Positions 300 to 46,843 of a DNA stretch of 46,843 bases are shown one piece after another (position 1 is the first letter of the stretch; every line of letters starts with the position of its first letter). The stretch spans positions 186,001-232,843 of the forward strand of contig QPGO01000131.1 in assembly GCA_008632985.1 (NCBI GenBank), read 5' to 3'. The notes under the pieces were generated by a model, which saw only the letters and a list, made by a program, of their open reading frames with translations, ran no database searches and had not been told where the DNA came from. Made by a program: the position numbers and the translations under genes. This DNA comes from Psammoneis japonica (Eukaryota).

Positions 300-2200
300 T
301 CAAGTTGGGAGCGTGATGCGAGTTGGGAGTGCGTCCGTCCGTCTGAACCGCGCAAACTGCCATCATGCCATCATTGCCGCAATCTCCACCTTCTCTTTTT
401 TTGTGGCTGATCTTTGACTGAAACCCAGCCCAGCCCAGCCAAGGAAAGATCAGGGACTTTGCTTGCGGGGGGATGGCTGGGCCTTGTCAGTGTGAAAAGC
501 TGTTGTGTGGTGTGTTTTCACAATGCGATCATCTGCTCTTTGCACCCGCTCAAAGTCTTCGCACTCTCTGGCTGACTGGCTCTCCAGTGATGCCTTCGCA
601 CCAGCGCCAGCCAGTTGGCAGAGGAGGTCCACAAAATGGTTTGAGAGCCACTCTTTGGCTGCCACCATCAGAAGCAAGCACTTCCAAGGGAGGCGACAAC
701 ACAACATGGCACTGCACTGCTCTGAAATCTGTGCCAACTTTCCAGAGCTTCATTGTTGTCACCCGCAACACTGTTGTTCCTTGAGGATTGAGGACAACCA
801 CTGCTTTTCTACCACAGTCTCTTGGCTGGCAGCTGCTGGCATGTGTGGGCTGCTGTTGTTTTTTTTTTTGCTGGCCTCCTCCTCTGTCACTGAGCTCTCT
901 CAATCTTTCTGGCTTGTCTTCACCCTGACGGTGAGCCCACCCATGCCATCCTCTGTCCTTGTCAAAGGATGTGTTGCATCACATCATTCTCACTTCCTCT
1001 TTGCTGTCTCTTTTCTCTCTTTTGAAGCCATGAAAGAAACAGCCAAAGCAGCTCAAGTCACACGAGCCACGTGCCTCATCTTCAAGAGACATCTCTTCCC
1101 TTTTGTCTTGCTCTCATCAAGACTTGTCAAGGAGGTCTGCATCAATGCAGCATGCACAGACTCCACTGACAAAGCAACAGCTGTCATTGTGGAAATGTTG
1201 CTCCATGTGACTGGGCAAATGTGCTGGTGCATGAAGGCACTGACATTTTGGGGTGCGATGAGAGCTCCTCATTTGTGGTGGGTGCTGCAAGCAGCAACTC
1301 CGGTCAGATGGTTGGCCATCCCTGTGGTGCTGGTGTGGCTGTGCTCAGGCACCAATCCCATGGTCAACAAAGCCTTGCACTTGCTCCCATGGTGTGACAA
1401 GAGTCACAAAGAACCAACTTGCCAAGGTGCTTTGCCAGCTGCCAGTGCCCAATGCTGTGGCAGATGCTGGGCAAAGCTCCAAAGCACACATGCAATGTCA
1501 GGGTGTTCCTGCCAATTGGAAGCTGTTGCACCACTCACTGGCAAGGGCACCCTGGCTGAAACTCCAGACTCCCCCAGTTGGGCAGTGTGGTCACTCAAAC
1601 AGCAAACAGGCAAACTCTGTGTGTTTCCACATTTCCAACCACAGCTGGAGCTGTTCTTAATTTGGGTGATGGCATTGCCCCCCCCTGTGTGCAGACCAAG
1701 ACTGCTGCTGGACATTGCAACAACAGTGCTCCACAGGCATCAAAGCACTGTCAGGCACAGGCAAAGTCAGTGATGGCATGTGCAAGAGGGGAGATTCCTT
1801 GCAGCAACGTTGCCCAGAACACCCAGCAATCACCCCTGAGGAACATGATTGAAGGGCTGCCAAAGACAAAGATGCAGCATCCTCAAATTCTTGTCAAGGG
1901 TCCAACAGCATGATGACAGTGATGATGATGATGATGCAAATGTGTTCTTGGAGTGAAAAACCAAGAGACCAGTTGTGGAGAGCACGCCCACAGAGCCACC
2001 AGCAATGATGCCACTGCTCAAGCTCTCATCTTCTTTCTTCTGAAAATGGTCTCAAGTTCATCTTCTTTGTTGGCTCATGCAGGGAGTTTCCTCATGCAGG
2101 GAGTTTCCATCTTTTTTCTTTGCACTTCTTTCATGGCTCCTGTCTTAAATCATGACAACTTGTGCACCTGGAAGTTTGGGGAAGAACATTTCTTCATCTG
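300..2200. other. TpA/CpG-depleted hypermutated domain 1
   Basis: After ggtac at ~288, TA is seen only at ~810, ~1657 and ~2146 until normal TA density returns at ~2205-2290. TG/CA are strongly enriched. No intact gene is recognisable. Confidence 0.85.
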
Positions 2201-2630
2201 GTCGTAAGTGCTTTCGATGGAGGTGCAGTGCCACATTTGACTCTCTTGTTCTGCGAAAAAGCCGCAAGGGAACAAGAGAGCTGCAAGTGTTTAGTCACGG
2301 ACTAAGCCCTAAACCATTCGTTGGAACTTCCTCAGAACCACCCTTTTTGTTTCTTCTAGCTAGAGCTGGCAGTGTAGAAAGGTACACATGCTTCAGAACT
2401 GTAGCAGCCATTGACTCTATTGAAGGAGAATTATAATCCTAGAGTGGATAAGGTGTCAATGTTGCTCCCTGCACATTCTACCTTAGGAGCAAGTGTAAAA
2501 CCTGTGCACGATTGCAATGCACTCGAGAGAAAAATCGACCTGACTTCCGGCCGGCTAATGAATCATTTGCTGAATGCGAGACAAGTGAATGGCTGTTTCT
2601 GCCCCCCTAAGTCTCAAGTTTGCGTCGTAT

Positions 2631-3512
2631 CTAATCAGTGCCATACCACGGTAAAGAATCAACCGGAAACAACAAGGGTCCATCGAACAATGATGGTGGA
2701 ATGAGTGAGTACCAAGCTTCCATGTCAGGCGCGGGGTGATAGCTGAATTCTGGGACGGAGCTTTGGTCCGGATCATCCGCTTCCAAGTCAAACTGTTCGG
2801 GAAAGAAGGGCAGAATTGACTCTGGGAAAAGCCTCATGAGGTATTGAGGAGAGGGATAGGCGATGGTACTATCAGGCCAACTGGAAATCCGTTGGATGCA
2901 AGCATAAACGATCCGCAAAAGACCCCGAAGTTTCTCCTTGTGCTCTTCTGTGCCATTTTCTTGGAATCGTTCAAAACTCCATCCGTACTCCCTTAAGTTA
3001 TCGATACCCGAGGCCGAAAAGTCAGAACTCCCGAACATAAGGTTCAGGGACAACATAATATCGTCGCTTTCGACATCGTCAACAAACAATAACATTTTGG
3101 AGGGGGGCGGTGCTTCCAGATCTTGAGTCTTTTGATTGTCTATTTCTTCCCATAAATCTTTCTGGAGATAGAACCGTGCAACGAGTCTGGAAGGATGGGA
3201 GTTCTGTGAAATGAAGAACGTAAATGGTTGCACCTGCGAAACCGTCACATCATCCAATTCAAAGTCCGGCCCCAATTCCGGGTGGGTCTTTCGTTTTTCA
3301 AAAGAAATCCTAGTGGGCAGTCGCTCTTCTTTGACAAGGAAAAAATGCCCATGGCGAAGGTCATTTACCGTTTGGCCTAGATCCTTGCACACCATGCCCA
3401 AGTTGGTAATGTCGTTGACACTCAGAAACTCGGCAAATAGCGGAAACACCGTTCCCAAAATGTGCAGATGCTCCTGTGCAATCTTCTGCTTCTTTTTGGC
3501 ACGGGTCAACAT
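2631..3512 (-). CDS. Hypothetical protein (~293 aa) with F-box-like N-terminal segment
   Basis: Long single ORF of normal composition (Tyr present). Likely start MLTRAKKKQK at 3512. ILGTVFPLFAEFLSVNDITNLGMVCKDL resembles an F-box motif (inference). Confidence 0.7.
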   Translation of the reverse strand: MLTRAKKKQKIAQEHLHILGTVFPLFAEFLSVNDITNLGMVCKDLGQTVNDLRHGHFFLVKEERLPTRISFEKRKTHPELGPDFELDDVTVSQVQPFTFFISQNSHPSRLVARFYLQKDLWEEIDNQKTQDLEAPPPSKMLLFVDDVESDDIMLSLNLMFGSSDFSASGIDNLREYGWSFERFQENGTEEHKEKLRGLLRIVYACIQRISSWPDSTIAYPSPQYLMRLFPESILPFFPEQFDLEADDPDQSSVPEFSYHPAPDMEAWYSLIPPSLFDGPLLFPVDSLPWYGTD

Positions 3513-4023
3513 CTTGGTCTTGTTGTTGTTGCTGTAGTATGAGCTGTAAGCTGTAACAGGCAAATAACGACGGCTGGTGGGAGTTAGAACCAACACTGCA
3601 GACAAAATATATTTGGCGGTGACGCTCCGAACGGCATGTACAAGTCTTTTCAACACCCGCCTTGTCAATCGAAATCGATCACAAGAGTCGTCAACAAGAG
3701 GGAGTCTAGACTATCTGTCAGAAATGAAACGCGACACGCGACGCAAAGCGCAGACGAGGTTGTGCATTTTGGCGCGCCCTTCACAAAGCTGCAAAAACAC
3801 ATCATTTTTTGACGATTTGCTCAAAAACACTACAAATCCCTCCGAATCATGATCCACTCAACAGCGCGCCAACCACCAACTCGTTTGTACTGATGAATGC
3901 TATTCCGTCTGAGTCAACCTCACACTTCACCACGTCGCTGTTAGTGAGGTTTAAAAATACTGTAAACGCCGACATTGCTACAACTGCTGATGATACAAGA
4001 ACGCTTGCAAGGAGAACGTCGAA

Positions 4024-4767
4024 ATGAATCTTACTGATGTGTTCCGCTTCGCTTTGATGAGCACTTTTGGCCTCGTTTTTTCGGAAGGCTTTTCGCTCCG
4101 CATGACAGCAGCTTCTACTTCTTCTACTCTTCCTCCCATCACAGTCTCGAAAGGGGATCATCCTCTGATCCGACGAGCTAATGAGTTTATTCACCGCGAG
4201 AGTGGCTTCTATTCTGACTACGATGCTGACTGCTTTGCCGAAGATTTTGTTTTTCGCGGTCCGTTCATCGGTCCTCTCAACAAACGAGATTATCTACAAA
4301 CGATGGATGCATTTGGCATCTACAAGGCCATTCCTGACATCAGTCCCAATGCATGGGGGTTTTCCATTGATCCCCGCGATCCAAACCGAGTATGGTTCAT
4401 GGTACGAAACACAGGCACGTTTAATGGCCAACCTTTGGCTCCCGATTCTCTGAATTTCAAACCCAATGGTGCAGTCCTTGACGGCTGTCCAGAAACCTTC
4501 AGTATTACCTTTGACGAAAATCAAAAGGTCAAGTATCTAACGGTAGGGTATGTGGCGGATCGTTTTGAAGGTAACACTGATGGTCAGGGGGCTGCCGTGG
4601 GTATCTTTAACGTCGTCGGGTTGCCGTTTCCTAAACCAGGACCACTGCTTCGATTTGCACAGTGGTTTGGAACTGAAGTTGTCAATTTGGGCCCCATGTC
4701 TTATTCACCTACGGATGTTCCAGCGTGGTGGAAAGATGAACGTAAAGCATCAGAAGGATACAGCTAG
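4024..4767 (+). CDS. NTF2/SnoaL-like fold protein, probably plastid-targeted
   Basis: 247-aa ORF. Signal-like N-terminus ending SEG|FS, then a Ser/Thr-rich transit-like peptide. The FAEDFVFRGPFIGPLNKRDYL...RVWFMVRNTGT...PETFSITFD pattern is typical of algal SnoaL-like proteins. Confidence 0.8.
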   Translation: MNLTDVFRFALMSTFGLVFSEGFSLRMTAASTSSTLPPITVSKGDHPLIRRANEFIHRESGFYSDYDADCFAEDFVFRGPFIGPLNKRDYLQTMDAFGIYKAIPDISPNAWGFSIDPRDPNRVWFMVRNTGTFNGQPLAPDSLNFKPNGAVLDGCPETFSITFDENQKVKYLTVGYVADRFEGNTDGQGAAVGIFNVVGLPFPKPGPLLRFAQWFGTEVVNLGPMSYSPTDVPAWWKDERKASEGYS

Positions 4768-5223
4768 TTTTTGTTTACGGTACACTACTATAGCATACCG
4801 GTAGCAAAACAGACAGAGACTTCTATCTTGCGCACTGCTTTTAACAACAAGAGAGTCCGTGCACTGTCCAAATGGTAGAATTTTTACAACATGACTTTAC
4901 ACACGAATCTCAATAACTTGCTAAGATGATTCTCTTCGTTTTCCTTAGCAGACAGAGACTGCATCGAAGCTCCTTCATAATCGTAGCGCATCACATAGTA
5001 GATAAGATGACGTCGACCTCATAGACCTGCACTTTGGGTGTGCTAGACGAGACTATGGAGAGCCCAGCATTTCTCGAAAATCGAGGTCCGAGTAGGCGTC
5101 ACTCTCCAACCACCGTAACAGGCAACTAGTGCATGTGGGATGCCAATGGATCACGTTTGGGTTGATGATGATAAGGAACCTGATGTAGAGAGAGGATGTG
5201 GACGTGAAGTACGATCGTACTTC

Positions 5224-5505
5224 CTACGTAATTTCAGTGCCGGCCCACACTCTTGGACATCCCCCCCAAATGTAGATGCGGATACGTGCGCTGTAGCCTA
5301 ATCGTGTCATGCTTTGTGCACGAAGTTGCGTGTTGATCGCATAGTAGTAGTCATGAGATGTAAGCATTCTGATGGCCCGTGATGACGTGCAACGAAGAGC
5401 TCCGACATTTGAGTGGTCTCCCGCCTCATCTTCCTCGCAGTAGGAAAGGATTAGAGCCCAAATGTCTAAGTCAAGAACTTCTAATGCGAAAGCGCCGGTA
5501 TTCAT
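5224..5505 (-). CDS. Short hypothetical ORF with F-box-like start (possible first exon or gene fragment)
   Basis: LEVLDLDIWALILSYC...LRCTS resembles an F-box. Composition is normal. The downstream exon structure could not be resolved. Confidence 0.35.
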   Translation of the reverse strand: MNTGAFALEVLDLDIWALILSYCEEDEAGDHSNVGALRCTSSRAIRMLTSHDYYYAINTQLRAQSMTRLGYSARIRIYIWGGCPRVWAGTEIT

Positions 5506-6099
5506 AGTTCTTCGTTATTAGTTTGTGAGAATTTGAACGCTGATGTAAAAGACAGGACTCGATGGAGTTTATGAAGCATTTCCTTCGTTATGTTGTGCAT
5601 CCTTCGGTCCGCGACGACTCGAGTGGAACAAGTTGGAACCCACGACTGAACGACTGAGTTGCGCGCTCTGGGACTGGGTTTCCGGCCGTGTGGGGCTGGG
5701 ATGACAGAGACCCAGTCGCGGGTCAGCTGTCGCACCCCACGGCTGCCACCGCTTCGAACAGATTGCAACTAACTAACTCCAGTGCCAAATGGTTGGCAAC
5801 AGACCACAGAAGGGTCCTTATTTGGCCGCAGGTTGCGTGCATTGAGTGGTCTCTGGTGCAGGTGGGCTTGAGACATCAGTCTGCAGTGTGGGTGGGCTCA
5901 AGCTGCTGATCAACAGCTCTTGTGTCATCTTCCCTGCTTTGCAGTGGCTGCTGCCACTTTGAACAGTGCAGCTGACTCCAGTGCCAAACAGCTGGTGGCA
6001 GAGGTCCACCTCTGCAGAGCTCAAGCTCTGGACCACTCACCAGAAGCCAGCCAGTTGTTGCCAGCTCCTGGGCCACTTTTTGGGTGGGAGACAGAAGGT

Positions 6100-6990
6100 G
6101 GGCCAATGAGATGTGGGCGGGAGTGCTGGCACACAACAAGGTGAACAATGTCAGTGTTGACCTGAGTGCATGGAAGGCCATGGCACTGCTTGCTGGAAGA
6201 AGGGAGTGAGTGGGAACATTTTTTGGGAGAAATCCAGCTGAGGATGGTTGTGGCCAGGTGGAGCGCACACGTGATGTCAGATGGTTTGACAGGCTTGAAG
6301 GCATTGCCTTGTTCATGGGAGGCAAGAGGCATGGTCAGGTGAGCACCATGCTGGTGCAGGATGAGCATGACATGAACTTTTGCAAGGGCCAAGTGGGGTT
6401 GTGGGTCACCACCACTCCAAGACAAGCCAGCGACTTTGCCTTGCAAGCTGTTTTCTGTGTGGCAAACTCCAGTGTGGCAAAGGTGGTGGCTGCAATTCTG
6501 CATTGGCTGTCATTTGCAAGTTTGGATGGACAGGGCAGATCAAAAGCTGCAGAGAGGGTGGTCTTGGATGGTGCAGCCACATGTTTGCTGGGCTGCAGCA
6601 AGTCGGAGAATGCCAACATGATCACATCAGTGATGATGCATGCATGGTGGCAACAGCACTGGCCAGCACAGCAGCAGCCATGGTGTGTCAGAGGAGCATG
6701 GGGAGCAGGTGTGAGTTTGACCTGGTTTGACAGAAGATCTTGTCAGGAGTGGAGTGGCATGCTGGCTGGCAGCAGAGGCAAAAGTTTGTGTTGTCCTGGA
6801 TGGCTTTGCGGGGGTCTGGGGACCCTGCTGCTGTGAATGCCTGGTCAATGCTGTGCAAGGCATCCTCCAGAGTGAAAGATCTGACTTGGTGACCATTGGG
6901 GGCAAGTGCTCCCTGTTGGCAGTGCTGGGCAAAGACTTGGAGGATGGGAGCAGGTTTGGCAAACTCTTGCATGGTGGGATCCAAGGAGGA
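6100..6990 (-). mobile_element. Decayed tyrosine-recombinase ORF of a DIRS/Ngaro-type retroelement
   Basis: Frameshifted pieces: PILQVFAQHCQQGALAPNGHQVRSFTLEDALHSIDQAF...SPDPR; IMLAFSDLLQPSKH (LLRPxEY box); ATTFATLEFATQK; MPLASH...PVKPSDIT...GFLPKNVPTHSL...AMA...QVNTDIVHLV. These follow the order of the YR domain of stramenopile DIRS-like elements as I recall it. Confidence 0.65.
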
Positions 6991-9900
6991 GGCCTTTCAG
7001 AGCTGGATCATGGTGCTGGCTCTTGAAGGCACAGTGCCAGCCTCTTGGTCTCTTGCTGAGCAGTGAAGCGATCATGGCAAAATTTGTTGAGGTGACATTC
7101 AACACAAAAAGATTCATTTTAATGTGCTGGAAATGCATCACAACATCAAGGACACAATTGATGAAGGACCAACTGTTGGAACATCCAGGACATGAGAAAC
7201 ACAAAGAACTCAGATGTGTTGATGAAAAGATGATGTGGCTCCTGACATGGCTGGATCATTCAGTTGCTCTTCATGAGCAAGGCTTTGCTGTCATCAATCT
7301 CTCACTTTTCAGTTTCATCTTGCTTTTCAGAGCAAATCATTTGGTTTGCATGATTTGTCCATCAGTGTCACTGGGCACCTGTCACATCACAAGTTTGAAG
7401 TTGTGTTGACAACTTGTTGGCAACCCACAGCCACAGCAAGCAACCAAGGCAAGTGTGCCAAGTGGCAAAGGAAGCCCAGCAGGACTCCCTTTTGGTGACA
7501 TTGATGGGCCAGTTCAACATCATTCATTCCACAGAGTTGCTGGCACTGTGTTCAGTGCTTGCAGACACTGACCTTCGTGCAGCTTGCCAGTGCTGGAACA
7601 CTGTGCCAGTTTCTGTGGGCCTGGGTTTCCACAGGACTGGGATCACAGAAACATGGTGCTGACAAACAGGCCTCTGGTTGTGGGCCAGCTGTCATGTCAC
7701 AAAAACATCCACCCACCGTTTGGCTCATGTTTTGCCCAACAAACAGCTTGCAATTTCAGATCTGCACATCACAGGCATCATCATGGATGCCACAACAAAA
7801 ACACAAGACATTGGTGCATGTGGTCTGTTTCTGATCTGTCCCAGATCTTTGTTTCTCCACGCTGTGCAGCCTCTGTTCCTTGGCATTCTGAGCTGGCTTT
7901 CACACTGACGGACAATGGCATGGGGTGTGTTCCACAACCCCCTCCTGCTCATCATCAGATCTTGTCCAAAATTTTTTGTGCTCAACAGTCAAAACACTTC
8001 CAAGCCCATGCAAGCACAAGTTCTGGACAAAGCTTGTGTGAGCAGCAACAGCCCCAAGTGACCCTGGTGCTTGCTCATGAACAAACAGCATCAGAGATGA
8101 GCACAAGCTCCATGCTGGCAACAGTGGTTGACTCACTCAAGAAACTGTTGTGCAGCAGCACTCCTGAAAAAAGGGCACAGAGGGCAAGGGAGGTCAGGAG
8201 CTTGCATCAAAAGGTGGCACATGCTGAGCTTGTTCTTGCAGATGTGGGTCACATTTCACAACCACAGAAATGATCAGTTGATGGCTTGTTTTAGAGATGG
8301 AGCCAGGGGTGGGCTCTTTTGTGCAGCTCACACAACATGACAAAGCAGCTTCTAGCTGGAGAGTTGACAATCCTTTGTTGTTCTGACTGGCCAGCTCTCC
8401 AAGGCAAGGATGCACCACAGGTGCCCATTGCTCAAGCTGTCTGTCATGGGGCTGGAGGGCATCATGTCATGATGCTTGGGTTGGGTGCTTGTGATGTCCA
8501 AATGCAGAGCCATGCTTGAGCTGCTTGCCAGAGCTTTTCTTCTGGCAGTGCACAGCCTGACATGCACGCTTTTGCCAACTGTGGGTGCAAAAGACAGAGT
8601 GATGTGAAGCAAAGCAGTGCCATCTCACAAGAGCACACATTGCAACAGTTCAGCATGCACTGTTCATCACAAAATGCAGCACGCTGCTGCCCAAAAACTT
8701 TTCACTTGTGTCTCTGATCTCTGGCATGTGAGGAACACAAAACAAACAAGAGTTGGTGGGAGCAAGCACCCTCCACTGCACTCACCTGGATCATCCAAAG
8801 CTTTGCCATGGTTGCCATGTTGCAAGTGAAGCAAAAAAACTTTTGGCAGAAAATCACGAGCTGTTTGGCCAAACTCAAGCTGAGTGAGAGTGGCAACTGA
8901 CTTCCCTCAAACCACAGAGCAAGACTGACCCAGCCTTTTGTCAGATGTTTTTGGATGGATTGGAGATGCACTCCAGCTCCAGGTGGGACCTCATGCCACT
9001 GGACTGTGCAACGTTCTTTTTGTCATCATGCACCACATGTCACACACGTGCATTTTTGCATGACTTTGGTGGCATTTTGTGCCACTCTGCAGCACAGTTG
9101 TTGGGCTGTCCATTCATCAACTTTCAGTGCATTTTGTGCACAAAGCCATTTTTAAATGTCTTCTGAATGGTGCAGTGCTGGCAGATTTTCAAAAATTGTG
9201 AGTGAAGCAGCCACTCCAGCCCCGGGCAGGACTCTGTGTGACACTGGGCCTGCAGAATTCTGCACATGGTGAGCTCTGCAACAAGAGCATTGGATGATTG
9301 ACAACTGACACAGTGGTTGTTGCAAACACAAAAAGAGGCAATTTTGCAAACATGTGAACTTCTTTGTGCTTGCAGTGCATCTTCTTTCTTGTTTTTGCCC
9401 AGATGTTTTCTCCAGACATTGAAGAACATGCCCAGGCAGTTTTTGTTTCTTTTTTGCTCTGTGATGGATGGCATGGTTGCCGCAACAAGAAGCCTTTGGC
9501 TTTGCAAAGTGGAAAGATGCACACAGAAATGTGTGTGTAAGAGCACATGGTGCATGACTGAAAACTCTCATGTTGCAATTCAGCAGTGCAAGGAACGGCC
9601 CACAGGGCTGGGCTGGCAGAACATGTCAAGTGTGAAGAGGCTTGCAACTGCACCACAAACTTGGCCATTCACTTGGATGTTGAAGACAAATGTTTTAATT
9701 GCCCAGCACAGGGACTGCAGAGTGCAGAGCTTGAGTGCAGAATTTCAAATTCTGCAAGCCCGTGTTGCACAGCCAGAGTCCCGCCTGGGGCTTGAGCATG
9801 TCTGGAGCCACTCTGGCTGGCCTCCTGATTAATTCATCTGGAAAACATTGTGGCTCTAGAATTCATCTGTGCTGAACAAGAACCCTGGGTTCTCAACAAG

Positions 9901-10467
9901 TGCTTGTCAATTGTGAACAAAGCAAATTTGATAATTGCTTTTACACTCCAAGTGGGAAAACATGCTCAATCTTCAGGTCTCATTGTTCATTCAATCTTGA
10001 CAAGATTGCAACCACAATGATTTTGACAGGATTTGGTTTGTGTCCAAACATGCCCAAGTGGGAAATGACAATCAATGAAACTTGTGACTTGCAGTTGTTT
10101 GTTCTTGACAAGGGTGCAATTGCAGCTGCTTTTTGACATTGCTCATTTCTGACAATGACAACATTCATTCTTCTCATTGGGATGCTCATGCGCGCTGGCT
10201 GTGTGCTGCTTGTGATGTGATTTGTGATGGCTGTGTTTTGTGTTTTGTCATTTCTGCTGTGAGTGGGCTTTTGCTTCCTGTTTCCTGCTCTTCCCTCTTT
10301 GGTTTTGTCCTGTCTGCTGCTGGTGCTCCTGTGCTGCAGTCATTCTCTGTCTTCACATGATGGCGTCATGTTTGCTGATTGTGTGATCCCTTGCAACTGC
10401 TCTCACTCACTGCAACCATGTCATTTGTTCTGTGTTGGATTGCAACCTTGTCTCTTTTGCTGATCAT

Positions 10468-12570: not shown

Positions 12571-12629
12571 TTGGCATGTCCTTGGCAAATGCCACTGGAG
12601 TCCTCCAACACCATCCAAAGAAAGCTGCA

Positions 12630-36329: not shown

Positions 36330-37050
36330 AGAAGGGAAGTTGGTTCCAGCCCAGGCAAGGGTTGTTGAGTTTGAGAAAGACCTGCCAAGGTTTTAGGATG
36401 CTTGCTTTGGGGCCAAGATCTTCAGGAACTGCAATGCTTGTGTGCAGGCATGGGCTTGCTTGTCATTGGTGTCAGGTTCATTGATGCTTGTCAGACGTCA
36501 CTTGGTTCTGTCCTCATTTTGAGAACTTGGAGCTGCCTGCAGAGTCAAGGGACCATCTCAAGGATGGGCTCCCATGGCCTGTCATTGTGGGATTCACAGA
36601 TTGGAAATCTCAACCTGAGTGGCCCAAGCTTCTGCATCCAGCGTGCAAGGTGTGACTCTGTGCCAACACCAAGGATTTGCAGTTTTGCCCCATCCATTGG
36701 TTGATGAAGCATTGGGAGCTTTGTGGCCACAAGTTGATGGGCCCAACTGCAAGCAAGGTTGGGTCTTCAACATTTGTGAGACAGTTGAAGAAGTTGTTTG
36801 AGGCTGCTGGTCTTGGTGTGTGCTCCAGTCACTCCATCAAAGATCTGCAGCACAGTGGGCTCATTGTTGCTGTGATGCCAACATTGTCATCATTTGAAAT
36901 GTTGGCAGGCAGCATGGCTTGGAAAATGCATTTCTGTGCAGGTCTGAAGGTGAGAGGATTGGGCAAGAGAAGCGACTTCCTGACAACAATTGCGACCCAA
37001 TTTGGGACACATGGGTGTTTGACACCAACACCACCGTCCACACCATGGAC
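36330..37050 (+). mobile_element. Decayed tyrosine recombinase, Crypton-like DNA transposon relic
   Basis: Own translation across frameshifts: SDVTWFCPHFENLELP...DGLP...FTDWKSQ...LQFCPIHWLMKHW...LKKLFEAAGLGVCSSHSI[K/R]RSAAQWA...II*NVGRQH...AFLC. This gives the HxxR box, a GRW-like box and the catalytic Tyr position read as Cys. No RT was recognised nearby. Confidence 0.6.
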
Positions 37051-37666
37051 AAAGGTGCCTCTAAACAATGCTCCAGTGCCAGCTGAAAATCAACAAAAAC
37101 AAAATGCTTTGTTGCCAAGCATGGCTCTGTTGCCAAGTGCAAACTGGTGTGCATGCTGCTCCATCCCCAAGCACTTGCATCAACACCACTTTCTTGCAGT
37201 TGACACAAAAAGAGCACTGTGTGCTGCAAATCTTTGAATGCATCACACCATGAAGTGCTGGGCTTGTGGGTGGTGCCAAATTTCCTCAGATCCACAAGGC
37301 TCTGTTTTGGAGTTGTCGGGCCATTGTCTTCTGGCAACTTGCAAACTGCACAGTGTGCCATGCACCACAAATCAAATTTTGAATTTTGGCTCCCTTTCTG
37401 TTCTGCTTTTTTCCTGCTTTTGTCATCCCACAGTCTGCAAGGAGAGTGTGCACAATTGTCTTCTTTGTCCACAACTTGTCCTCAAATGCAGTTTTTTTTT
37501 CAGCATGTCCAAGACAACAAAAGCACTCACATCCATTGGTTCTTGACATGCTGCTTCATTTTTGGGGCAAGGCATGTGCTGATTGGAGGTGAAGCTGTTG
37601 ACCTTGCACTCCACAAAGCTGCACATTGCAAAAGATGTCTTTTTTTACACACAGAAAGGATTTCTT

Positions 37667-38333
37667 GCACTTGCAGGAAAACAACTCTCGGACCACAAGT
37701 GGAAGTCAGAAAAGTGTTCCATGAGAATCCATTGATCTTTTTGTGCACACTTGTGTTTGGATGTTGCCTTTTCTGCCACAAAAGCACACGACAGCAAAGA
37801 ATTAAATTTTGTTTGGGGCCATGTGCAAAAGGAACATTGAGCTGCATTTGGGCTGTGCACAATCAAATCTTCCTCCTTTCATGCATGTGTCCATGTCATG
37901 TGCAATGATGAGCTTTTTTGGCAACACGTAAATTTCCACACAAATTGTGAATGAGATGGCAAGACCTCCCACATGAAAACACTTTTTTTCAAACTTTTTG
38001 GTTTTTGGTGATTCTCGCAAGTGCAAGAAATCCATGAAAAAGTGCAAAAAAGTGATTTCACAAGGGAGGCATTGCTGCCTCATTCCTCATTTGTTGAGAC
38101 ATTTTTGTGTGTTGCCAAAAAAGCTCTTTGTTGCATGTGATGTGAGCACATGTGCAGGAAGATTTGACTGCACATGACCCCAAATGCAGCTCAATGTTTT
38201 GCATGTGACCCCAAGTGCAATTTGATGTTTTGCCACCATGTGCTTTTTGGCGGGAAAAGTCACACACAAAATCAAAAGATGAGTGACAGCATCAGCGGAT
38301 TCTTGTGAAAACACCTTTCTGTTTTCTGACTTC
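37667..38333. repeat. Fold-back pair of a ~300-bp dispersed repeat (copy A +, 37667-38045; copy B -, 38056-38333)
   Basis: ggaagtcagaaaagtgt...gaatcc...aacattgagctgcatttggg...tcaaatcttcct...gagcttttttggcaacac in copy A appears as its reverse complement in copy B. Confidence 0.8.
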
Positions 38334-38379
38334 TTCTGCTGCTTGTGGTTTAAGAGTGATCATCGCAAGTGCAAGAATG

Positions 38380-40830
38380 CCAAGTTTGGGGAGTTTGCTG
38401 AGTTTGGTGGGTTTTGGGAGTCAGCCAAGTTTGCAAAATTTGGCAAGTTTAACAAGCTTTCCAAGTTTGGCAAGTTTGGCATGTTTCCCAAGTTTGGCAA
38501 CTTTGGCAAGTTTGCCAAGATTGGTGAGTTTGGCGAGTTTGCCAAGTTTGGTGATTTTGCCAAGTTTGGCAAGATCAGTGAGTTTTGCAAGTTTGCCAAG
38601 TTTGGAAAATTTGGCAAGTTTTGCTGGTTTGGCGGGTTTGGCAAGTTTTTGGCAAGTTTGCCGAGTTTGGCAAGTTTGGCAAGTTTGGCAAGTTTGGTGG
38701 GTTTGGCAAGTTTGGCCAGCTTGGCAAGTTTGGCAGGTTTGGCAGGTTTGGTGGGCTTGCCAAGTTTGGCAAATTTGGCAAGTTTGCTGAGTTTGGCAAG
38801 TTTGACAAGTTTGGTGGGTTTGGCAAGTTTAACAAGTTTGGCATGTTTGGCAAGTTTGGCGGGTTTGGCAAGTTTGGCGAGCTTGGCAAGTTTTGCAAGT
38901 TTGGCAGGTTTGGTGAGTTTGATGAGTTTTTTCAAGTTTGGCGGGTTTGGCAAGTTTAGCAAGTTTGGCAAGTTTGGCATGTTTGGCAAGCTTGGCAAGT
39001 TTGGTGGCTTTGGCAAGTTTGGCAAGTTTGGCGAGCTTGGCAAGTTTGGCAAGTTTAGCAGGTTTGGCAAATTTGGCAAGTTTGGCAAGTTTGGCAGGTT
39101 TGGTGAGTTTGATGAGTTTTTTCAAGTTTGGCAGGTTTGGCAAGTTTAACGAGTTTGGCAAGTTTGGCAAGTTTGGTGGGTTTGGCGAGTTTGGCAAGTT
39201 TGGCATGCATGGCAAGTTTGGCAAGTTTGGCAAGTTTGGTGGGTTTGACGAGTTTGGCAAGTTTGGCAAGTTTGGCAAGTTTGGCAAGTTTGGTGAGTTT
39301 GGCAAGTTTGGCAGGTTTGTCAAGTTTGGCAGGTTTGGAAAGTTTGGTGGGTTTGGCAAGTTTGGCGAGCTTGGCAAGTTTGGCAAGTTTTGCAAGTTTG
39401 GCAGGTTTGGTGAGTTTGATGAGTTTTTTCAAGTTTGGCGGGTTTGGCAAGTTTAGCAAGTTTGGCAAGTTTGGCAAGTTTGGTGGGTTTGGCATGTTTG
39501 GCATGTTTGGCAAGTTTGGTGGCTTTGGCAAGTTTGGCAAGTTTGGCAGGTTTGGCGAGTTTTTCAAGTTTGGCGGGTTTGGCAAGTTTGGCAAGTTTGG
39601 CAAGTTTGGTGGGTTTGGCGAGTTTGGCAAGTTTGGCATGCATGGCAAGTTTGCCAAGTTTGGCAAGTTTGGCGAGTTTGGCAAGTTTGGCAAGTTTGGC
39701 GAGTTTGGCAAGTTTGGCAGGTTTGGCAAGTTTGGCGGGTTTGGAAAGTTTGGCAAGTTTGGCGAGTTTGGCAAGTTTGGCAAGTTTGGTGGGTTTGGCA
39801 AGTTTGGCAAGTTTGGCCAGCTTGGCAAGTTTGGCAAGTTTGGCAGGTTTGGTGAGTTTGATGAGTTTTTTCAAGTTTGGTGAGTTTAGCAAGTTTGGCA
39901 AGTTTTGGTGGGTTTGGCGAGTTTGGCAAGTTTGGCACATTTGGCAAATTTGGCAAGTTTGATGGGTTTGGCAAGTTTGGCAAGTTTGGCGAGCTTGGCA
40001 AGTTTGGCAGGTTTGGCAAGTTTGGCAGGTTTGATGAGTTTGATGAGTTTTTTCAAGTTTGGCGGGTTTGGCAAGTTTGGCAAGTTTGTTTGGTGGGTTT
40101 GGTGAGTTTGGCATGTTTGGCAAGTTTGGGGAGCTTGGCAAGTTTGACAAGTTTGGCAGGTTTGACAGGTTTGGCAGGTTTGGCAAGTTTGGTGGGTTTG
40201 GCAAGTTTGGCAAGTTTGGCGAGTTTGGTGAGTTTGGTGGGTTTGGTGAGTTTGGCAAGTTTGGCAAGTTTGGCAGGTTTGGCGGGTTTGGTGGGTTTGG
40301 CAAGTTTGGCAAGTTTGTCGGGTTTAGAAAGCTTGGCAAGTTTGGCGAGTTTGGTGAGTTTTGAAAGTTTGGTGAGTTTGGTGGGTTTGGTGAGTTTGGC
40401 AAGTTTGGCAAGTTTGGTGGGTTTGGTGGGTTTGGCGAGTTTGGCAAGTCTGGCAAGTTTGGTGAGTTTGGCAAGTTTGGCAGGTTTGGCAAGTTTGGCA
40501 AGTTTGGATGGTTTTGTGAGTTTGGTGAGTTTGGCAATTTTGGTGAGTTTGGCAAGCTTGGTGGGTTTGGTGGATTTGGTGAGTTTGGCAAGTTTGGTGA
40601 GTTTGGCAAGTTTGGTGAGTTTGGCAAGTTTGGGGGTTTTGCTGGAAAGTTTGGTGAGTTTGGCAAGTTTGGCAAGTTTGGCAGGTTTGACAAGTTTGGC
40701 GGGTTTGGCAAGTTTGATGAGTTTTCAAGTTTGATGGGTTTGGTGAGTTTTGTGAGTTTGGCAAGCTTGGCAAGTTTGACAAGCTCAGCAAGTTTGGCAA
40801 GTTTGCTGAGTTTGGCAAGCTTGGCTTGCT
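38380..40830 (+). repeat. 9-bp minisatellite (GGCAAGTTT)n, ~2.4 kb, with higher-order blocks
   Basis: Continuous array with variants GGTGAG/GGCGAG/GGTGGG/GGCAGG. The landmark gagtttgatgagttttttcaagttt recurs at ~38915, ~39105, ~39412, ~39854 and ~40035. Confidence 0.97.
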
Positions 40831-41749
40831 TGCAAAAAGGCTGGGTGTCAGACATGGAGCAGGTGTCATGGGAGGCTTTGGGGCATGCTTGCATCGAAGG
40901 CTTCAAGCCAAGTGCAAAGTCATGTGGATGTGGTGCAGCCATTGCCACAAAAGAGAAGTCAAGGGAGCAGCAAGAATTTCATGGCATGCTTGAGAGCTGC
41001 TGCAGCAAATGTTGCTTGTTGACAAAGAGCATGGCAAGCTTCTTGGAAAAACCAAGAGCAGACATTGTGAGGAAGAAGCAGTGCTCCACTGCAAAGCAGT
41101 GTTTGTGGCAAGCAGGAAAGCGGTCAAGGCAACAATGAGTTGATGTGTGGTTTGTTGTCACTTTGCATGCCAGCTGATTGTCGAGTCTTGGGGGCAAATG
41201 TGTGCTTGCCTCAACACAAACAACAGCAAGCTGGCTGTTTTCAACATGCCTCCAGAGGCTCTGACTCAACAAGACAGTGGTGCTGACCTGCAACTGCATG
41301 AAACAATGCTCTTTTGTGCCAAGTTTGCAGAGAAATTCGACAAGCCATTTCAGCTCAAACAAGCACAGCACATGCTGGTGCAGAGTCAGAGCAAGAACAC
41401 AGTTGTTGTCAAGAAGGGAGGCATCTTTGAAGTGGCGTTGTTGCCAGCAGGAAGCAAGAACCACAGCACAAATTGCAACAAAGCCAGCAGAAGATCTCTG
41501 GAAATTTGGTCTGCACAGGGTGGGCTCTGTGACAAGCAAGTTGTTGCAAGAGAGGCACTTGGCACATTTTGCAGTCACGCAGATTGGCACTTGGGCAAAA
41601 CAAAAGACAGCGCTGCAGCATGCACAGAAGAAACCCAGGGTTTGTCATTGGGTGAAATTGATGGTGGCAACAGCACAGATGCGGGTTGGCTGTTGGAGCA
41701 AGGCAAAGAAAACAATGCCCAAGCCAACATGGTGGGGTGTCACGCATCG

Positions 41750-42160
41750 CGTTCCAGGTCCACCGTAGGTGGGACCTCGTGCTGCTGAACTGTGACATCG
41801 ACAGTTTTTTGAATCGCGTCGCATGTCGCGCACGTACATTTCTACGTGATTTTGGCGAAATTTTGCATCATTTTACAGTGCAATTGTCAGGCGATCCATT
41901 GAACAACTTTTAATATTTTTTTCTTCTACGCCATTCTCGAGTGTCTTAAGAATGGCGTAGGGCAGGCGTGTTGTCCAAAACTTCGAGTACGAACAGAGAT
42001 GCTTGCACTACAAACTTGACCGTCTATTTCATGTCGAAGATAAATGCCGGTACATCCATTAACCACAGTACGAACTACAGAGCTCGCACGTAGAATTCTA
42101 CGGGGCAAATGTCACAAAATAATCCCACCTCTAGGACTGGAACCCGTCTTGCCCCCAACG
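41750..42160. promoter_or_regulatory. Unmutated ~400-bp island (normal TA and CG) with hairpins; putative promoter or regulatory element
   Basis: TA/CG-rich words (cgtac, ctacg, gagtacg, ggtac) reappear abruptly. Perfect 12-bp stem 41926-41937/41949-41960 and a 14-bp palindrome cgtagaattctacg at 42089-42102. The function is inferred. Confidence 0.45.
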
Positions 42161-42542
42161 CGTTTGTTGTCAAAGAGGAAACACATGAGGGAGTTTTGTG
42201 GGGCACTGACTTGTGCACAGAGAAAGTGCGACAATGCAGGAACAAAACAGAGCCAATGGAGCAATGGGATGTTGTCAAGAAAGTGTGCAGAAACAGCACA
42301 CAGCACAGATTTGGCGGGCTGTCAGATGCCAAGTTGGCTTGCTTTGGTTTTGCAGGTGGCAGAGAACTTCCACAGAGTGCTTGGAGACAGAGCAAGAAAG
42401 GGTGCAAGGGCCAAGCCATTGAGTTGGAAACCATCAATCAACTTGACTTGGCGAGGCAACAAGAGCAGCAACAGGCAACCAACAAGTCTCCATCTGAGTC
42501 AGCAGGGGAACAACAAGTGACTGCCAAATGCAAAACAAAAGC

Positions 42543-43155
42543 TGGAAGTCAGAAAAGTGTTTTGCAAGAATCCATTGATCTTTTTGTCCATGTCTGCATT
42601 TGCATGTTGCCTTTTCTGTTGAAAAAGCACATGACAGCAAAGAACTGAATTTTGTTTGGGTTTGTGCAACAAACATTCAATTGCATTGAGGGTTGCTCAC
42701 AATCAAATCTCCCCACCACATGTGTTCATGCGACACATGACAATGAGCTTTTTTGGCATTGCACAAATTTTTGCACAAATTGTGAATGAGACAGCAGTGT
42801 GTCCTGGATTCCTTGCACTTGCGGCAACCACTCTCAGGCCACAAGTGGAAGTCAGCAAAGTGTTTCATGAGAATCCACCAATCTTTTTGTGCATGTTTGC
42901 ACTTGTGTGTTGCATGACAGCAAAGTGTTGAATTTTGTTTGGGGCCACATGCAAAACATTGAGCTGCATTTGGGGCCATGCACAATCAAATCTTCCTGTT
43001 GCACATGTGTTCATGTCATGTGCAACAATGAGCTTTTTCAGGGATGTGCAAATTTTGGCATGAATTGCAAATGAGACAGCAATGCCTCTCATGTGAAAAC
43101 ACTTCTTTGGGCCATTTTTGGTTCTTGGTGATTCCTGCAAGTGTAAGAAATCCAC
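42543..43155 (+). repeat. Two further tandem copies (42543-42797, 42815-43155) of the ~300-bp repeat at 37667-38333
   Basis: Shared ggaagtcag(a/c)aaagtgttt...gaatcca...gacagcaaag...aattttgtttggg...caatcaaatct...aatgagcttttt...aattg..aatgaga. Confidence 0.85.
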
Positions 43156-45602
43156 ACAGAAAACATTGGTGTGGCAGGATCAGTCAGATCTTCAAAAAAA
43201 GAGTGGTCGCCCACTCCAAAAAGAGGTGCTGTCTTGTGTGTTGCACTTTTTTCCTTGGGCTGTGCTGGCATTGCTCCAGTGCATGTCATGCCAACTGGCT
43301 TGACAGCAGCAAAATTGCAGGCAGCCTGGTGTTCCTCAGCACGTTGTGCAAAAGTGTTGGGGTTGAATTTTTTGCCACCAACAATGTGCCATGATTGGCT
43401 CTGGTCAAACTGCTCCATCATGTTGTGCGCAGATGCAAGAGGGGTGCAGCATTGCTTTGGAGAATGGACAAGCCGCCCTTCAACATCACCCACAATGTCC
43501 ACACCATGCTTCTCCATGTTGTGGTTTGTTGTTGTTGTTTTGTCCTCCCAAAATCTTTTTTCTTTTGCAACTCCTCACTGTGTGATGGGCTCCCATGAGA
43601 GTGGGGTTTGCCACCTTCCTCTTGCTGACATCTGGGGTCCGGCATGTTGAGAAATTCCTCGCCATTGCACTCTGAGCAGCTCGTGGCTTTGACCTTGTGT
43701 TTTGCCATTGGATGGTGTGTCACATGCAGTTGATTGCACAGACAGCCACGCAGAGCTCCAGTGCTTGCAAGCTGTTGGTTGAGCCTCCCGATCAATTGAT
43801 TGAGGCCCAAACCTGCACTTTTCCCATGACAGGGCCCCCTCCTGTGTGCTCTGCTGTGCGGTTGTCAGCAGTCAACAGTTGACAGTCTCTGATGAGTGGT
43901 GCAATGACAGGCAAGTTGCAATGGTTGTTGGTGCCCCACACATGCCTTGCTGATGGCAAGACTGGTTGGATGGACAGATGGATGGATGGCATGATGCTGT
44001 GTGGAGTGGCATTGCGTTTCATGTCAGCTCACAAAATTTTGAATTTGTGGCTGTTGCAAATGTGGCAAAGGCACACAAAAACACACTCAATCATTGTGCC
44101 AATGTGATGCCACAGCATTTCCCCATCTGCAGGCCACAGACTGGAGATGAACATTGTCAGTTGTCAGGTGTGCCATCGTTCCTCAATTGGCACAACCTTC
44201 TTGTGAGCACATTGGCTGCCATCATTTTTCTGCTCATGTGTTGATGCTCATTTGCATTTTTGATCCATTTGCTCAGCAGGCATCAACTGCTGCAATGGTG
44301 CAGGCCACACCAAGGCATGTTGCAGCAAACACACTGCGTGTCATTCAGCATGGGTGTGCTTGCTCTTGTTGTTGCTGCTGGCTCCCTTGGCAGTCTCAGG
44401 CACTCCTCATGGACTGCAGCACAGTGCTTCTTGAGCCACTGAAGACAGCTTTCTGTCTTTGGCTCCAGGTTTGAATGGAGAGCAACACCAGACGACCAAC
44501 CCAGAACAGCAAAATCTCATGTTGTGGATGATGTTGTCACCTGTGTCAGAGCAAGATTTCTTGAACAAAGCAAGTTCCATGCAAATTGTTTTTGTGTTGC
44601 CAGCAAAGTGGCAACTCGCACAAAAATCTGCCAAGCACTTTGAAGCAAGGCCACCACCCCAGACAAAAAGCACAAGGTTGTGTCCCACCACTGGCACAAG
44701 AAGGATGTCAACCTCATCAACTGCTGCTTTGTTGACAAACAATGAAGGAACTGTGGCAAATGATGATGGTTTTGGGAGGACTTTTGAGGTGGGCACAATG
44801 AGATGACTTCTTCCAAGCAAAGCCCCCCTCTCAACAGAAAATGCAAGGTCTCATCCTGCCAGCACAAGGACATCAACAAGGGCGCTGTTCTTTTTTCTGG
44901 GGTTGTTGACAAAGATTGTCTCAGCATTTTGGGTGAAGGTGAGACTGAGGAGGACACTGTTGAGGATGCCAAAAGCATTGTTGTGGTGCAAAAACTGGGA
45001 AAGCATGCAAGAATTCAATGTCACACACACAAACACATGCTCCATTGGTGCAGACAACTTGGGATGTAATTTGTGCTTTAGATTGCATGCAGTCTCCAAT
45101 GTGACAGCCTGACAGTGCTCCCTGGTGATGAGAACAACTTCATGCAAACCACAGAAAGCAATTGACACACAGCTTCCATGTTGGTTGCATCTGTTGGCTC
45201 ATTCCAGCAACAAGAGTTCCAGCTTCTGATCTGTGATGCAGGTTGGTGATGCGCGCAGTTTTGCTGTTGGCGTTTGTGAGAGTTTTGGTCCTCTGTCTTT
45301 GCTTGTGGACCATTGGATTTTATGATGTGCTGACATCTTTTGGTCCATTGTTTTGGTCTGCTTTTTTTTGGTCATTGTCCAATCTGTGGTCTTCTTGTGG
45401 GGTTGGCACTGAAATAGTGTCTTTTCTCTTTTTGACTTTTTTGGTTGCTTTTGGGGCTCCCTTCTCCTTTTCTCTCTTCTTGCGGATTTCCACATTCATG
45501 AGGACCAGGATCACTTTGACAGCTCATGCACTGTTGAGGCTTGCATGCTGTTTGCATGATCGCTGTCACCCCAGCTCATGCTGTCATCTGGCTCATTTCT
45601 GT

Positions 45603-46843
45603 GGTTATGAGCTCAAGTGTTGAGCGATTGTTCAGCAGGATCAGGCAACATCCTGATCAGGGATGACAGTGCCAATCTGTTTGGGGATGATGCGCAGGAT
45701 GATTTGAGCATTGAGTCCAAGCAACAATCTCAAGGACGTTTCTCTGCATCTTGAGGAGGATCAAGCCACACGCCACACTGCTGTGGCAGTTGTTCCTCAA
45801 GTTGGTGGCATCATCAACAACATTGCCTGGACCAGTGGTCCACAAGTTGTTGATCCACATGCCATGGCATGCAGCCTGCATTGCCAATGTCCGACATCAT
45901 TCTGTCATTCAACAACAATTGCACCCCATTGTCAGAAAGGTTTGGAGTCAAAGAAGATTGACACCAACAAGGATTGCAAGGTGACTCTCATCAGTTGGAC
46001 CAACTCTGTTGGCAAACATCTTCTCATGAGCAGCATGGATTTGGCACTCTGTGTCCAGAGGAGAGATCCAAGGATGGGGGCACCTCAAGAGTTGAATCTT
46101 ACATTGGATTGCAGTTTGTTGAACCTGCAAGAGGTTGAGGATCATGTCAAAGACTTGCTTGCTGTGGGTGACCAATGTGATCATCAGAACTCATGGTGGT
46201 CTGCAGAGTTCTTTCTCAACTCGATTGGTGTTGCTCCATGTGGTGATGTCCAAAAGTGTGCCAATGGACCTGCACATGATGGCATGGGCCCATTGTTTAC
46301 AAGCTTGTTGCTGCTGAGTTGCATTCATCCACTGTGTTGGCTCTCTGTGTGGTGGTCGACAAACTCAAGGCTGTGAAACTCAGGGAAGAACTGGGTGAGA
46401 ATGTCAAAAACTGCACTGCAAAGTTGGTTGAATTGTGCAGTCATCTGGAAGGTCATCATAAACTTCCTGAAGATGCTGCTTCAATCCTTTGCAGTGGTCT
46501 TGCAACATTGACTGTCAAGTCATTGTGGACTCAATTCATGACTCTCTTCAATGAAGTCAACATGGATCCAATGAAGCACACATGTGGTGATCTTGTTGTT
46601 CGTGCCAACAAGTCATGTGCCAGTTTGGTGGATTGCAAAGAATGGATGCCTTTTGATGCAGACAAGTCCAGCTCTGCTGCATTTCCAAACTGTGCGGATG
46701 ACTGTGTTTGCCACAAATGTGGTCAGCAAGGCCACATCCATCCACACTTCCCTCAAAACAGCAATGACAAGTCAAGGAGGTGGTGGTGGATGTGGAGATC
46801 AAGGTTGTGGTGACGTGTTGTGGAGATCAACAGACAAGGATGT
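45603..46843 (+). mobile_element. Decayed Ty1/Copia (CoDi-type) retrotransposon: putative PBS and gag, continuing past the window end
   Basis: GGTTATGAGC at 45603-45612 is complementary to the initiator tRNA-Met anticodon arm (copia-type half-tRNA PBS). Downstream gag-like GDQCDHQNSWWSAEFFLNSI...GP...DKLKAVKLREELGENV and zinc knuckle CHKCGQQGHIHPHFP. Confidence 0.72.

Follow-up and report, generated by a model that had tools for sequence, protein, structure and literature searches.

This analysis concerns a 46,843-nt stretch of DNA from the diatom Psammoneis japonica (contig QPGO01000131.1), referred to below as the window, in which about 29 kb has lost nearly all of its TpA dinucleotides. 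The loss is confined to four blocks that alternate with gene islands, and its direction could be read both from coding sequence and from repeat copies: TA was erased by mutation rather than ancestrally lacking. We consider it very probable that an in-place, TpA-specific A:T→G:C hypermutation took place in these blocks. All composition and polarity tests covered this one window, and the restriction to domains was judged there.

TpA is nearly absent from four bounded blocks

Observed/expected (o/e) dinucleotide ratios were calculated in sliding 1-kb windows, and block borders were placed by listing every TA and CG. In the 1-kb windows, TA o/e was 0.00-0.10 over ~29 kb, with TG and CA at ~1.5-2.2, whereas the gene islands had TA o/e values of 0.42-0.89 and CG values of 0.8-1.17. 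Taken block by block, TA o/e was 0.03-0.05 in the four blocks (~289-2146, 5819-14118, 27560-41740, and 42136 to the end), compared with 0.59 in the islands, and TG and CA o/e stood at 1.86 where TA was 0.03. By direct count, 63 TA remained in 26,369 block bases and 700 in 16,952 island bases, a loss of ~94%. A preliminary description of this DNA had reported TA-devoid blocks with an excess of TG and CA, set between gene islands of ordinary TA and CG content, and had proposed a sliding-window dinucleotide analysis as a check. Run across the window, that analysis confirmed the signature, and the list of every TA agreed with it. The description of the blocks as CpG-poor was correct for most of them (CG o/e 0.15) but not for the block at 27.6-31.4 kb, which retains 60% of its CpG. 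The window is divided as follows (no strand unless given).

289..2146: block 1, TA-free and CG-poor; two internal TA (810, 1658); TA o/e 0.02, CG o/e 0.09-0.18
2147..5818: gene island 1; TA o/e 0.44-0.85, CG o/e 0.56-1.07
5819..14118: block 2, TA-free and CG-poor, from composition and the TA list
14119..27560: gene island 2; Pfam matches to 6-phosphofructo-2-kinase, SET/Agenet-Tudor, glutamate dehydrogenase and triose-phosphate translocator (TPT)
27561..31400: block 3a, TA erased; TA o/e 0.05, CG o/e 0.60, TG = CA 1.58; broken host-type genes inside
31401..38425: block 3b, TA-free and CG-poor; dispersed repeats common to block 3b and 42543-43154
38426..40825, plus strand: 9-bp satellite of ~266 units, TA-free (Tandem Repeats Finder)
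41740..42135: unmutated pocket of 400 bases with 21 TA and ~28 CG, surrounded by the TA-free domain
42136..46843: block 4, TA-free and CG-poor; runs to the window end and holds the longest TA-free run

The domains were bounded, with borders sharp to ~100-200 bases. Before block 1 the last TA lies at 288, and the next outside TA at 2146/2205; for block 2, TA ends at 5819 and returns at 14118. At block 3 it ends at 27522 and is back only within the 400-base pocket at 41740-42135, and at block 4 it ends at 42132, with none from there to the window end. The longest TA-free run measured 1,923 bases (43144-45067), and with 0.041 TA per base, as in the islands, such a run has a chance of ~e^-79.

Strand-symmetrised frequencies, in which both strands were counted and the satellite was omitted from the CG-poor set, were the following.

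Islands (16,950 bases): TA 0.0413, CG 0.0537, TG = CA 0.0729
CG-poor blocks (22,559 bases): TA 0.0022, CG 0.0087, TG = CA 0.1164
Block 27600-31400 (3,800 bases): TA 0.0034, CG 0.0361 (CG o/e 0.60), TG = CA 0.0987

Relative to the islands, TA + CG was down by 84.2 per 1000 in the CG-poor blocks and TG + CA was up by 86.9; the corresponding values for block 3a were 55.6 and 51.5. The four pyrimidine-purine dinucleotides summed to 0.241 in the islands, 0.244 in the CG-poor blocks, and 0.237 in block 3a. A constant sum, with a loss of TA and CG that equals the gain of TG and CA, is the pattern expected from transitions alone.

TpA was lost by mutation

Since Tyr is encoded only by TAY (with Y for pyrimidine), Tyr sites provide a built-in probe of TA loss. 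Two broken genes in block 3a could be used in this way.

29015..31192, minus strand: relic of a two-domain DUF179/AlgH-like gene (Pfam DUF179; 233 homologs at E<=0.001; tblastn alignments)
28690..29022, minus strand: dual-specificity phosphatase (DSPc) fragment (Pfam DSPc, E 4e-16, profile positions 70-132 of 133)

The best 150 of the 233 AlgH-like homologs were aligned to the window with tblastn, and sites with at least 60% agreement among at least 10 homologs were scored. The relic kept 157 of 183 conserved non-Tyr sites and 0 of 4 conserved Tyr, whose codons now read TGC, TGC, CAT, and TTT. The TPT gene in island 2, treated in the same way as a control, kept 218 of 234 non-Tyr sites and 10 of 13 Tyr sites. 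No Tyr at all was present in the 549 aligned residues of the relic, compared with 8-18 in each of 10 homologs. In the phosphatase fragment, the position of the Tyr after the P-loop reads His: comparison of the alignments placed AHLM where three solved phosphatases have AYLM or AYIM. Both genes are otherwise damaged. The AlgH-like relic carries two in-frame TGA (29306-29308 and 29348-29350, of which the second may be intronic) and lacks one segment. The phosphatase fragment, directly behind it, consists of only the C-terminal half of the domain and had no homolog among the longer proteins in the search.

Repeat copies gave a second view of the direction of change. An element in the unmutated pocket (41767-41988) could be aligned to a mutated copy in block 2.

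8981..9203, plus strand: mutated ("old") element copy, aligned to the unmutated copy at 41767-41988

The nine TA of the unmutated copy had become TG in four cases, CA in three, and something else in two, with none kept. In the same pair CG was changed at 11 of 17 sites, to CA in seven cases and to TG in four.

When copies mutate after their separation, one copy will often show TG and the other CA where the ancestor had TA or CG. Such double differences between repeat copies were counted and compared with 300 column shuffles.

Dispersed pairs: 56 CA↔TG double differences; shuffle mean 4.6, shuffle maximum 12
190-base array: 15 CA↔TG double differences; shuffle mean 1.3, shuffle maximum 6
9-bp satellite: 32 CA↔TG double differences; shuffle mean 2.3, shuffle maximum 8

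They occurred ~12-fold above chance. The preliminary description had postulated a second, strand-symmetric A:T→G:C process at TpA and had suggested polarised alignments as a check. These alignments revealed TA→TG/CA changes in the relic gene and in the repeat pair, and the postulate is upheld by the three polarised tests, a TG:CA ratio of ~1:1, and the fact that block 3a keeps most of its CpG.

Strand symmetry, flanking rule, and relation to CpG decay

Both strands were hit site by site, and the process is strand-symmetric. The TG:CA counts in five blocks were 206:203, 1025:913, 357:393, 756:820, and 595:531, and a runs test found no strand-coordinated tracts of TG or CA (z from -1.9 to +0.2). 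The neighbouring bases did matter. Retention per context, taken as residual block TA (n=63) relative to the islands (n=700), was as follows.

TTAA: 0.36
CTAG: 0.14
CTAA: 0.115
GTAA: 0.10
ATAA: 0.05
ATAG and CTAC: 0.02
GTAC, ATAC, and ATAT: 0

RTAY (with R for purine) accounted for 0 of the 63 residual TA versus 203 of the 700 island TA (chi-square p 1.4e-12). YTAR, in which a purine follows the A on both strands, made up 36 of 63 residual TA versus 138 of 700 in the islands. RTAA had mostly become RCAA, as from an event on the strand reading TTAY, and only rarely RTGA, in agreement with the flanking motif. If adenine is taken to be the attacked base, the order on the hit strand is 5'-TAY > TAG > TAA. 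AA and TT were undepleted, with o/e values of 1.25 and 1.20 in the blocks and 1.17 and 1.11 in the islands.

The relation to CpG loss was also informative. In block 3a (27.6-31.4 kb), 95% of TA has gone but just 40% of CpG. TA loss extends 100-200 bases past CpG loss at the borders (289-378, 5600-5770, and 14009-14118), and in block 27561-31400 it does so by 3.8 kb. TA loss without most of the CG loss, together with the wider TA-loss borders, indicates that the TpA process is separate from CpG decay; its footprint is wider or earlier, resembling the leakage of fungal repeat-induced point mutation (RIP) into flanks. In the CG-poor blocks CpG retention was fairly uniform across contexts (0.08-0.35), as for methyl-cytosine deamination. 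The earlier argument that CpG decay by deamination of 5-methylcytosine cannot explain the TA loss is borne out by block 3a, which lost its TA and kept 60% of its CpG, and we rejected such decay as the sole cause.

Reads and a second organism

Contigs were built from the k-mers of two runs of one sample, X1 and X2, and compared with the window over positions 1-20000 only. No platform is recorded for X1, and the window itself may have been assembled from this sample, so that this comparison tests assembly and not chemistry. Three X1 contigs were nearly identical to TA-free sequence.

3229-7562: 9 other letters; spans the island-block border at 5819
7545-9264: 1 other letter
9239-9924: 0 other letters

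Since these contigs match, the TA-free sequence is present in the reads and was not created by assembly or polishing. A raw-read check had been proposed beforehand; the X1 contigs do reproduce the TA-free sequence, although with the platform unrecorded they do not make an independent-platform test. Over positions 1-20000, X1 and the window differed by transitions at 81 of 103 differing places; these differences are too few and too uncertain in origin to gauge a mutation rate. At 8672-13340, hundreds of X1 contigs matched at 90-99% likeness with many joints between 190-base units, which suggests that this part of block 2 belongs to a family with many genomic copies.

Some further observations concern the same reads. 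At 1290-1617 a single X1 contig differs from the window by 12 letters, eight of which form four TG↔CA swaps (1328/9, 1350/1, 1361/2, and 1529/30); this contig may be an allele or an independently mutated paralog. Contigs of run X2 (labelled 'DNA?') match the islands, and those on 14756-19624 omit intragenic stretches of 86, 258, and 103 bases, like spliced RNA. They leave most TA-free parts of 1-20000 uncovered, which is no evidence of silence. A further run, X3, gave no matching contigs. At 2489-2549, X2 carries one of two alleles seen at half depth in X1.

We also surveyed 80 metagenome loci (312,696 bases) encoding TPT relatives, in 1,132 windows of 500 bases with a cut-off of TA o/e <0.15. 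One patch fell below the cut-off, at ~237-1089 of locus L079. It contains a 684-base TA-free run, has 1-4 CG per 200 bases and 20-25 TG or CA per 200 bases (versus ~11-15 elsewhere on the locus), and lies beside ordinary DNA. This locus comes from a different sample and organism (its TPT is 63% identical), and its contig name is in short-read-assembler style. The patch holds a DUF7869 frame (738-1142, minus strand, E 6.8e-9).

A comparable process in a chlorarachniophyte

The preliminary description knew of no described system of this kind. One has since been described in the chlorarachniophyte Bigelowiella natans in a preprint by Mettrop et al. (2026; bioRxiv 10.64898/2026.01.13.699255), and the earlier statement remains accurate insofar as our full-text literature search turned up no account of hypermutation directed at TpA in a diatom. 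According to the accessible part of this preprint, the mutation-accumulation lines of B. natans gained 302 new mutations, of which 231 fell in two silent viral insertions, and 230 of these 231 were A→G or T→C changes, all at TpA. The hypermutation was seen in some lines only. In addition, the B. natans genome was reported to contain 124 clusters of windows that are TpA-poor and rich in CpA + TpG, and an ADAT2-like/TadA-like deaminase was proposed as the agent.

The window shares with this system the TpA→TpG/CpA transitions, the discrete silent nuclear regions, and the depletion of TpA with enrichment of CpA and TpG, and both hosts belong to the SAR supergroup. The differences are considerable. 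The host is a rhizarian there and a diatom, that is a stramenopile, here; TA o/e is 0.03-0.05 here, compared with the Rho of 0.45 that the preprint gives for the B. natans giant-virus region. TA loss coincides with CpG decay here, and a TAY > TAR rule is visible, for which we found no counterpart in the preprint's main text. Live mutations were observed in B. natans, whereas the window holds a long-term footprint in sequence only. The window is the first diatom instance that we found of this just-described TpA hypermutation, and it is near saturation.

Proposed mechanism

We think it likely that the blocks are silent, repeat-rich diatom domains whose TpA were changed enzymatically from A:T to G:C, in place and to near-exhaustion. 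The agent would act on chromosomal DNA in bounded domains, with high efficiency and dinucleotide specificity. In such a scheme a TadA/ADAT2-type DNA adenine deaminase, possibly recruited to silent chromatin, to repeated DNA, or through small RNAs, would convert the A of TpA to inosine, which the next replication would read as G. A hit on the top-strand A would turn TA into TG, and a hit on the bottom-strand A would turn it into CA. The CpG loss in the same domains would come from 5-methylcytosine deaminating in the ordinary, slower way. Of the two processes, that at TpA would be the faster or the earlier-starting, because TA is gone from the 27.6-31.4 kb block with 40% of CpG lost and because TA loss is 100-200 bases wider at the borders. 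The outcome would be an irreversible inactivation of the domain content, with Cys or His codons in place of every Tyr codon.

That the agent is an adenine deaminase, with a TadA/ADAT-like enzyme as the best fit, is a tentative proposal. The accessible part of PMC12528748 reports that DNA editors derived from TadA inherently favour YAC and that one recent variant prefers YAY over YAR. The TAY > TAR order found here follows the same hierarchy and so supports a TadA/ADAT-like deaminase as a pattern resemblance only; this candidate had already been named in the preliminary description, which listed deamination of a modified adenine as another, and the resemblance is what now speaks for the TadA/ADAT-like enzyme. 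The likeness extends to A→G change on DNA, a required 5' pyrimidine (T), and a preferred 3' pyrimidine (PMC12528748, same limits). The editors differ in being engineered enzymes that Cas9 directs to individual sites, whereas the process here is natural and domain-wide. In addition, T at -1 is strict here, and CA accumulates rather than being lost. No deaminase gene was among the Pfam matches within the window.

A bolder and somewhat more doubtful idea is that one ancient DNA adenine deaminase system, guided by chromatin or repeats, is common to diatoms and chlorarachniophytes and edits 5'-TAY on both strands to saturation. If so, the shared system would be an adenine counterpart of RIP that permanently disables silent domains, including host genes caught in their spread, and its enzyme would naturally deaminate adenine of chromosomal DNA.

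Several observations weigh against TpA-directed adenine editing as we describe it. TpA is self-complementary, so that the sequence cannot tell whether A or T is attacked. The polarised sites are few (four conserved Tyr, and nine TA in a single repeat pair), and the CA↔TG swap test taken alone is blind to whether the ancestor was TA or CG, a distinction that the Tyr and repeat-pair tests do make. Context by context, the gain of TG + CA was uncorrelated with the loss of TA + CG when the islands were used as a proxy for the ancestor (r 0.06 and -0.41); only the totals balance, since the islands are a poor proxy for the ancestral flanks of the blocks. The 400-base pocket at 41740-42135 is untouched inside the domain. 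Position in the domain is therefore insufficient, and the process is either episodic, with the pocket as a later insertion, or spares some DNA. The targets are repeats, satellite, and pieces of host-type genes, in which Pfam showed neither viral nor transposon domains, whereas those of B. natans are viral. Finally, X1 is possibly the source sample, so that its contigs do not amount to confirmation on an independent platform.

Alternative explanations

The main alternative, which we consider unlikely, is that the thymine of TpA is attacked: an enzyme of the TET/JBP type would hydroxylate T, or modify it in some other way, in silent chromatin, and mispairing with G or mis-repair would then yield C, turning TA into CA or, through the other strand, into TG. 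As TpA is palindromic, all results from the window fit T→C at its first base equally well, and the flanking rule would simply state that a T after a purine is hit best. In dinoflagellates much T is replaced by 5-hydroxymethyluracil, mostly at TpA and TpC. Set against this, nothing in the analysis pointed to such a base in diatoms. A modified T that normally pairs with A would need to be strongly mutagenic for a conversion of ~94%, and the TAY > TAR order matches the preference reported for TadA-type adenine deaminases (PMC12528748, in its accessible part).

We attach very little weight to A-to-I hyper-editing of double-stranded RNA by an ADAR-like enzyme followed by reverse transcription and reinsertion, or to patch repair by DNA polymerase eta (Pol eta) with WA→WG changes (W, A or T). 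It is true that ADAR and Pol eta both produce A→G with a preferred 5' T or A, and repeats are typical sources of double-stranded RNA. Both would also hit AA, however, and AA and TT are intact. ADARs favour a 3' G, contrary to the finding that TAG and TAA are the least affected contexts. Moreover, TG and CA are interleaved at random without strand runs, and gene fragments, satellite, and unique DNA were converted as one contiguous, sharp-bordered domain, which argues for an event on chromosomal DNA. ADAR-type RNA hyper-editing is disfavoured on three counts, namely AA, TAG/TAA, and strand runs. The Pol-eta-type WA→WG mechanism, which was among the candidates initially listed, is disfavoured because AA/TT are not depleted in the blocks.

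An artefact of sequencing, base-calling, or polishing, with heterochromatic TA and CG misread because they carry a modified base, appears highly improbable to us. Some long-read base callers miscall methylated bases, and the X1 platform is unrecorded with X1 possibly being the source sample. However, the X1 k-mer contigs are almost identical to the TA-free sequence and one of them crosses a border. Illumina sequencing of mutation-accumulation lines yielded the corresponding signature in B. natans (bioRxiv 10.64898/2026.01.13.699255, accessible part), and a similar patch occurs in the unrelated L079, from another sample and with a short-read-style name. A strand-specific misread would leave TA, CG, TG, and CA side by side in the consensus of the two strands rather than a clean loss of TA and CG, and the genes in block 3a are truly decayed, with in-frame stops, an absent segment, and a truncated domain.

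We know of no natural genome with a TA o/e of ~0.03, and the view that the blocks are foreign or ancient DNA which was always TA-poor (a viral or other-genome compositional relic, with no host mutational process) has next to no probability and is excluded for the polarisable parts. Although the hypermutable regions of B. natans are viral insertions (bioRxiv 10.64898/2026.01.13.699255, accessible part) and the CG-poor blocks are without recognisable genes, the host-type AlgH-like relic has 0 Tyr versus 8-18 in its homologs and TGC or CAT at conserved-Tyr codons, mutated and unmutated copies of one element share the window, and TG↔CA swaps between copies are far over chance.

Comparison with RIP and methylation decay

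Both RIP and CpG decay bear on how this process should be classified. Fungal RIP changes C:G to T:A, mainly CpA to TpA, and thereby raises TpA and lowers CpA/TpG and GC; it requires duplicated DNA and a premeiotic stage. The blocks resemble RIP in their dinucleotide-specific, strand-symmetric transitions over whole repeated or silent domains, in destroyed reading frames, and in slight leakage into flanks. Arrays, dispersed repeats, and the hundreds of similar X1 contigs on part of block 2 were the signs of duplicated sequence observed. RIP is the functional analogue, but the polarity is opposite, as TpA is destroyed here (TA o/e 0.03, TG and CA 1.86). The preliminary description had rightly stated that fungal RIP runs the other way, and RIP was rejected because TA falls and TG/CA rise, so that its defining substitution is absent. 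GC has barely changed here, because CpG loss offsets the A:T→G:C gain.

Diatoms do possess a DNA methyltransferase of unknown function, DNMT4, a relative of RID, the enzyme of fungal RIP (Hoguin et al. 2023, PMC9998398). No RIP-like mutation is reported in the accessible part of that paper, and the DNMT4/RID relationship concerns cytosine and not adenine. Ordinary CpG decay likewise yields TG and CA and accounts for the CG loss, including the 11 of 17 CG changed in the repeat pair; removal of TA is beyond its reach.

Wider implications

To our knowledge, RIP has stood alone among eukaryotes as a well-known means of deliberately mutating one's own repeated DNA. Opposite polarity came with the B. 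natans preprint, in a single rhizarian, and the saturation signature in a diatom together with the patch in L079 suggests that the process is widespread in SAR algae, in which case it would shape the silent fraction of their genomes. The window shows the long-term end state of such a process: TA-free DNA, a TAY > TAR rule, and a footprint distinct from the decay of CpG methylation. Some diatoms are transformable and knockout-ready, so that the enzyme could be identified, and a natural DNA adenine deaminase, if that is what acts here, would be of interest to genome defence, mutation-rate theory, and base editing. At a practical level, TA-free tracts provide an easy marker of silent chromatin in diatom assemblies and a warning for gene callers, as they contain long false open reading frames (ORFs).

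Contents of the blocks and islands

The following further features were noted in blocks 1 and 2.

496..1770, plus strand: ORF of 425 aa within block 1; no homolog found
10441-10739: tandem array, 151 bases x2, in block 2
11593-12938: tandem array of ~190-base units (x5-7), in block 2

The ORF at 496-1770 contains 0 Tyr, 26 Cys, 22 His, and 17 Trp, and neither the homolog search nor Pfam gave a match. TAA and TAG, two of the three stop codons, cannot occur in TA-free DNA, which leads to long false ORFs; TGA is the sole stop left, at ~0.021 per codon, and a run of 425 codons is borderline by chance. The 9-bp satellite has the consensus CAAGTTTGG with 77% matches (Tandem Repeats Finder), a GC skew of +0.56 to +0.59, and a CA o/e as high as 4.6.

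The Pfam scan comprised 315 ORFs. Of these, 92 were at least 130 aa long and came from anywhere in the window; the other 223, of 60-129 aa, were block ORFs lying outside the satellite. The scan revealed no transposon or viral domain, although heavy decay could mask an older origin, and no recognisable genes in the CG-poor blocks. Only weak matches were seen in the scan of block ORFs (zf-primase, Vts1, DUF6824, and collagen-like matches in the satellite). The preliminary description had assigned TE relics, satellites, and broken gene copies to the blocks. The satellite, tandem arrays, and broken host-type genes were indeed found, and the transposable-element relics were left unconfirmed.

The first 225 bases of the unmutated pocket are homologous to the mutated copy at 8981-9203, and the pocket could represent a later arrival of this element or a piece that was shielded. 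Two ORFs on the plus strand, 42044-42517 and 42094-42645, begin within it.

Scans for tRNA and Rfam families gave no match in the window. The closest named relatives of the TPT in island 2 are diatom proteins (Attheya, Eucampia, Chaetoceros, and Thalassiosira) at identities of at most 83%, which points to a diatom whose proteins lie outside the searched collection. In the island beside the silent domain, the minus-strand gene at 16850-19715 gave a weak SET match (E 8e-4) as well as Agenet and Tudor-like matches, and judging from these domains its product could possibly be a chromatin reader or writer.

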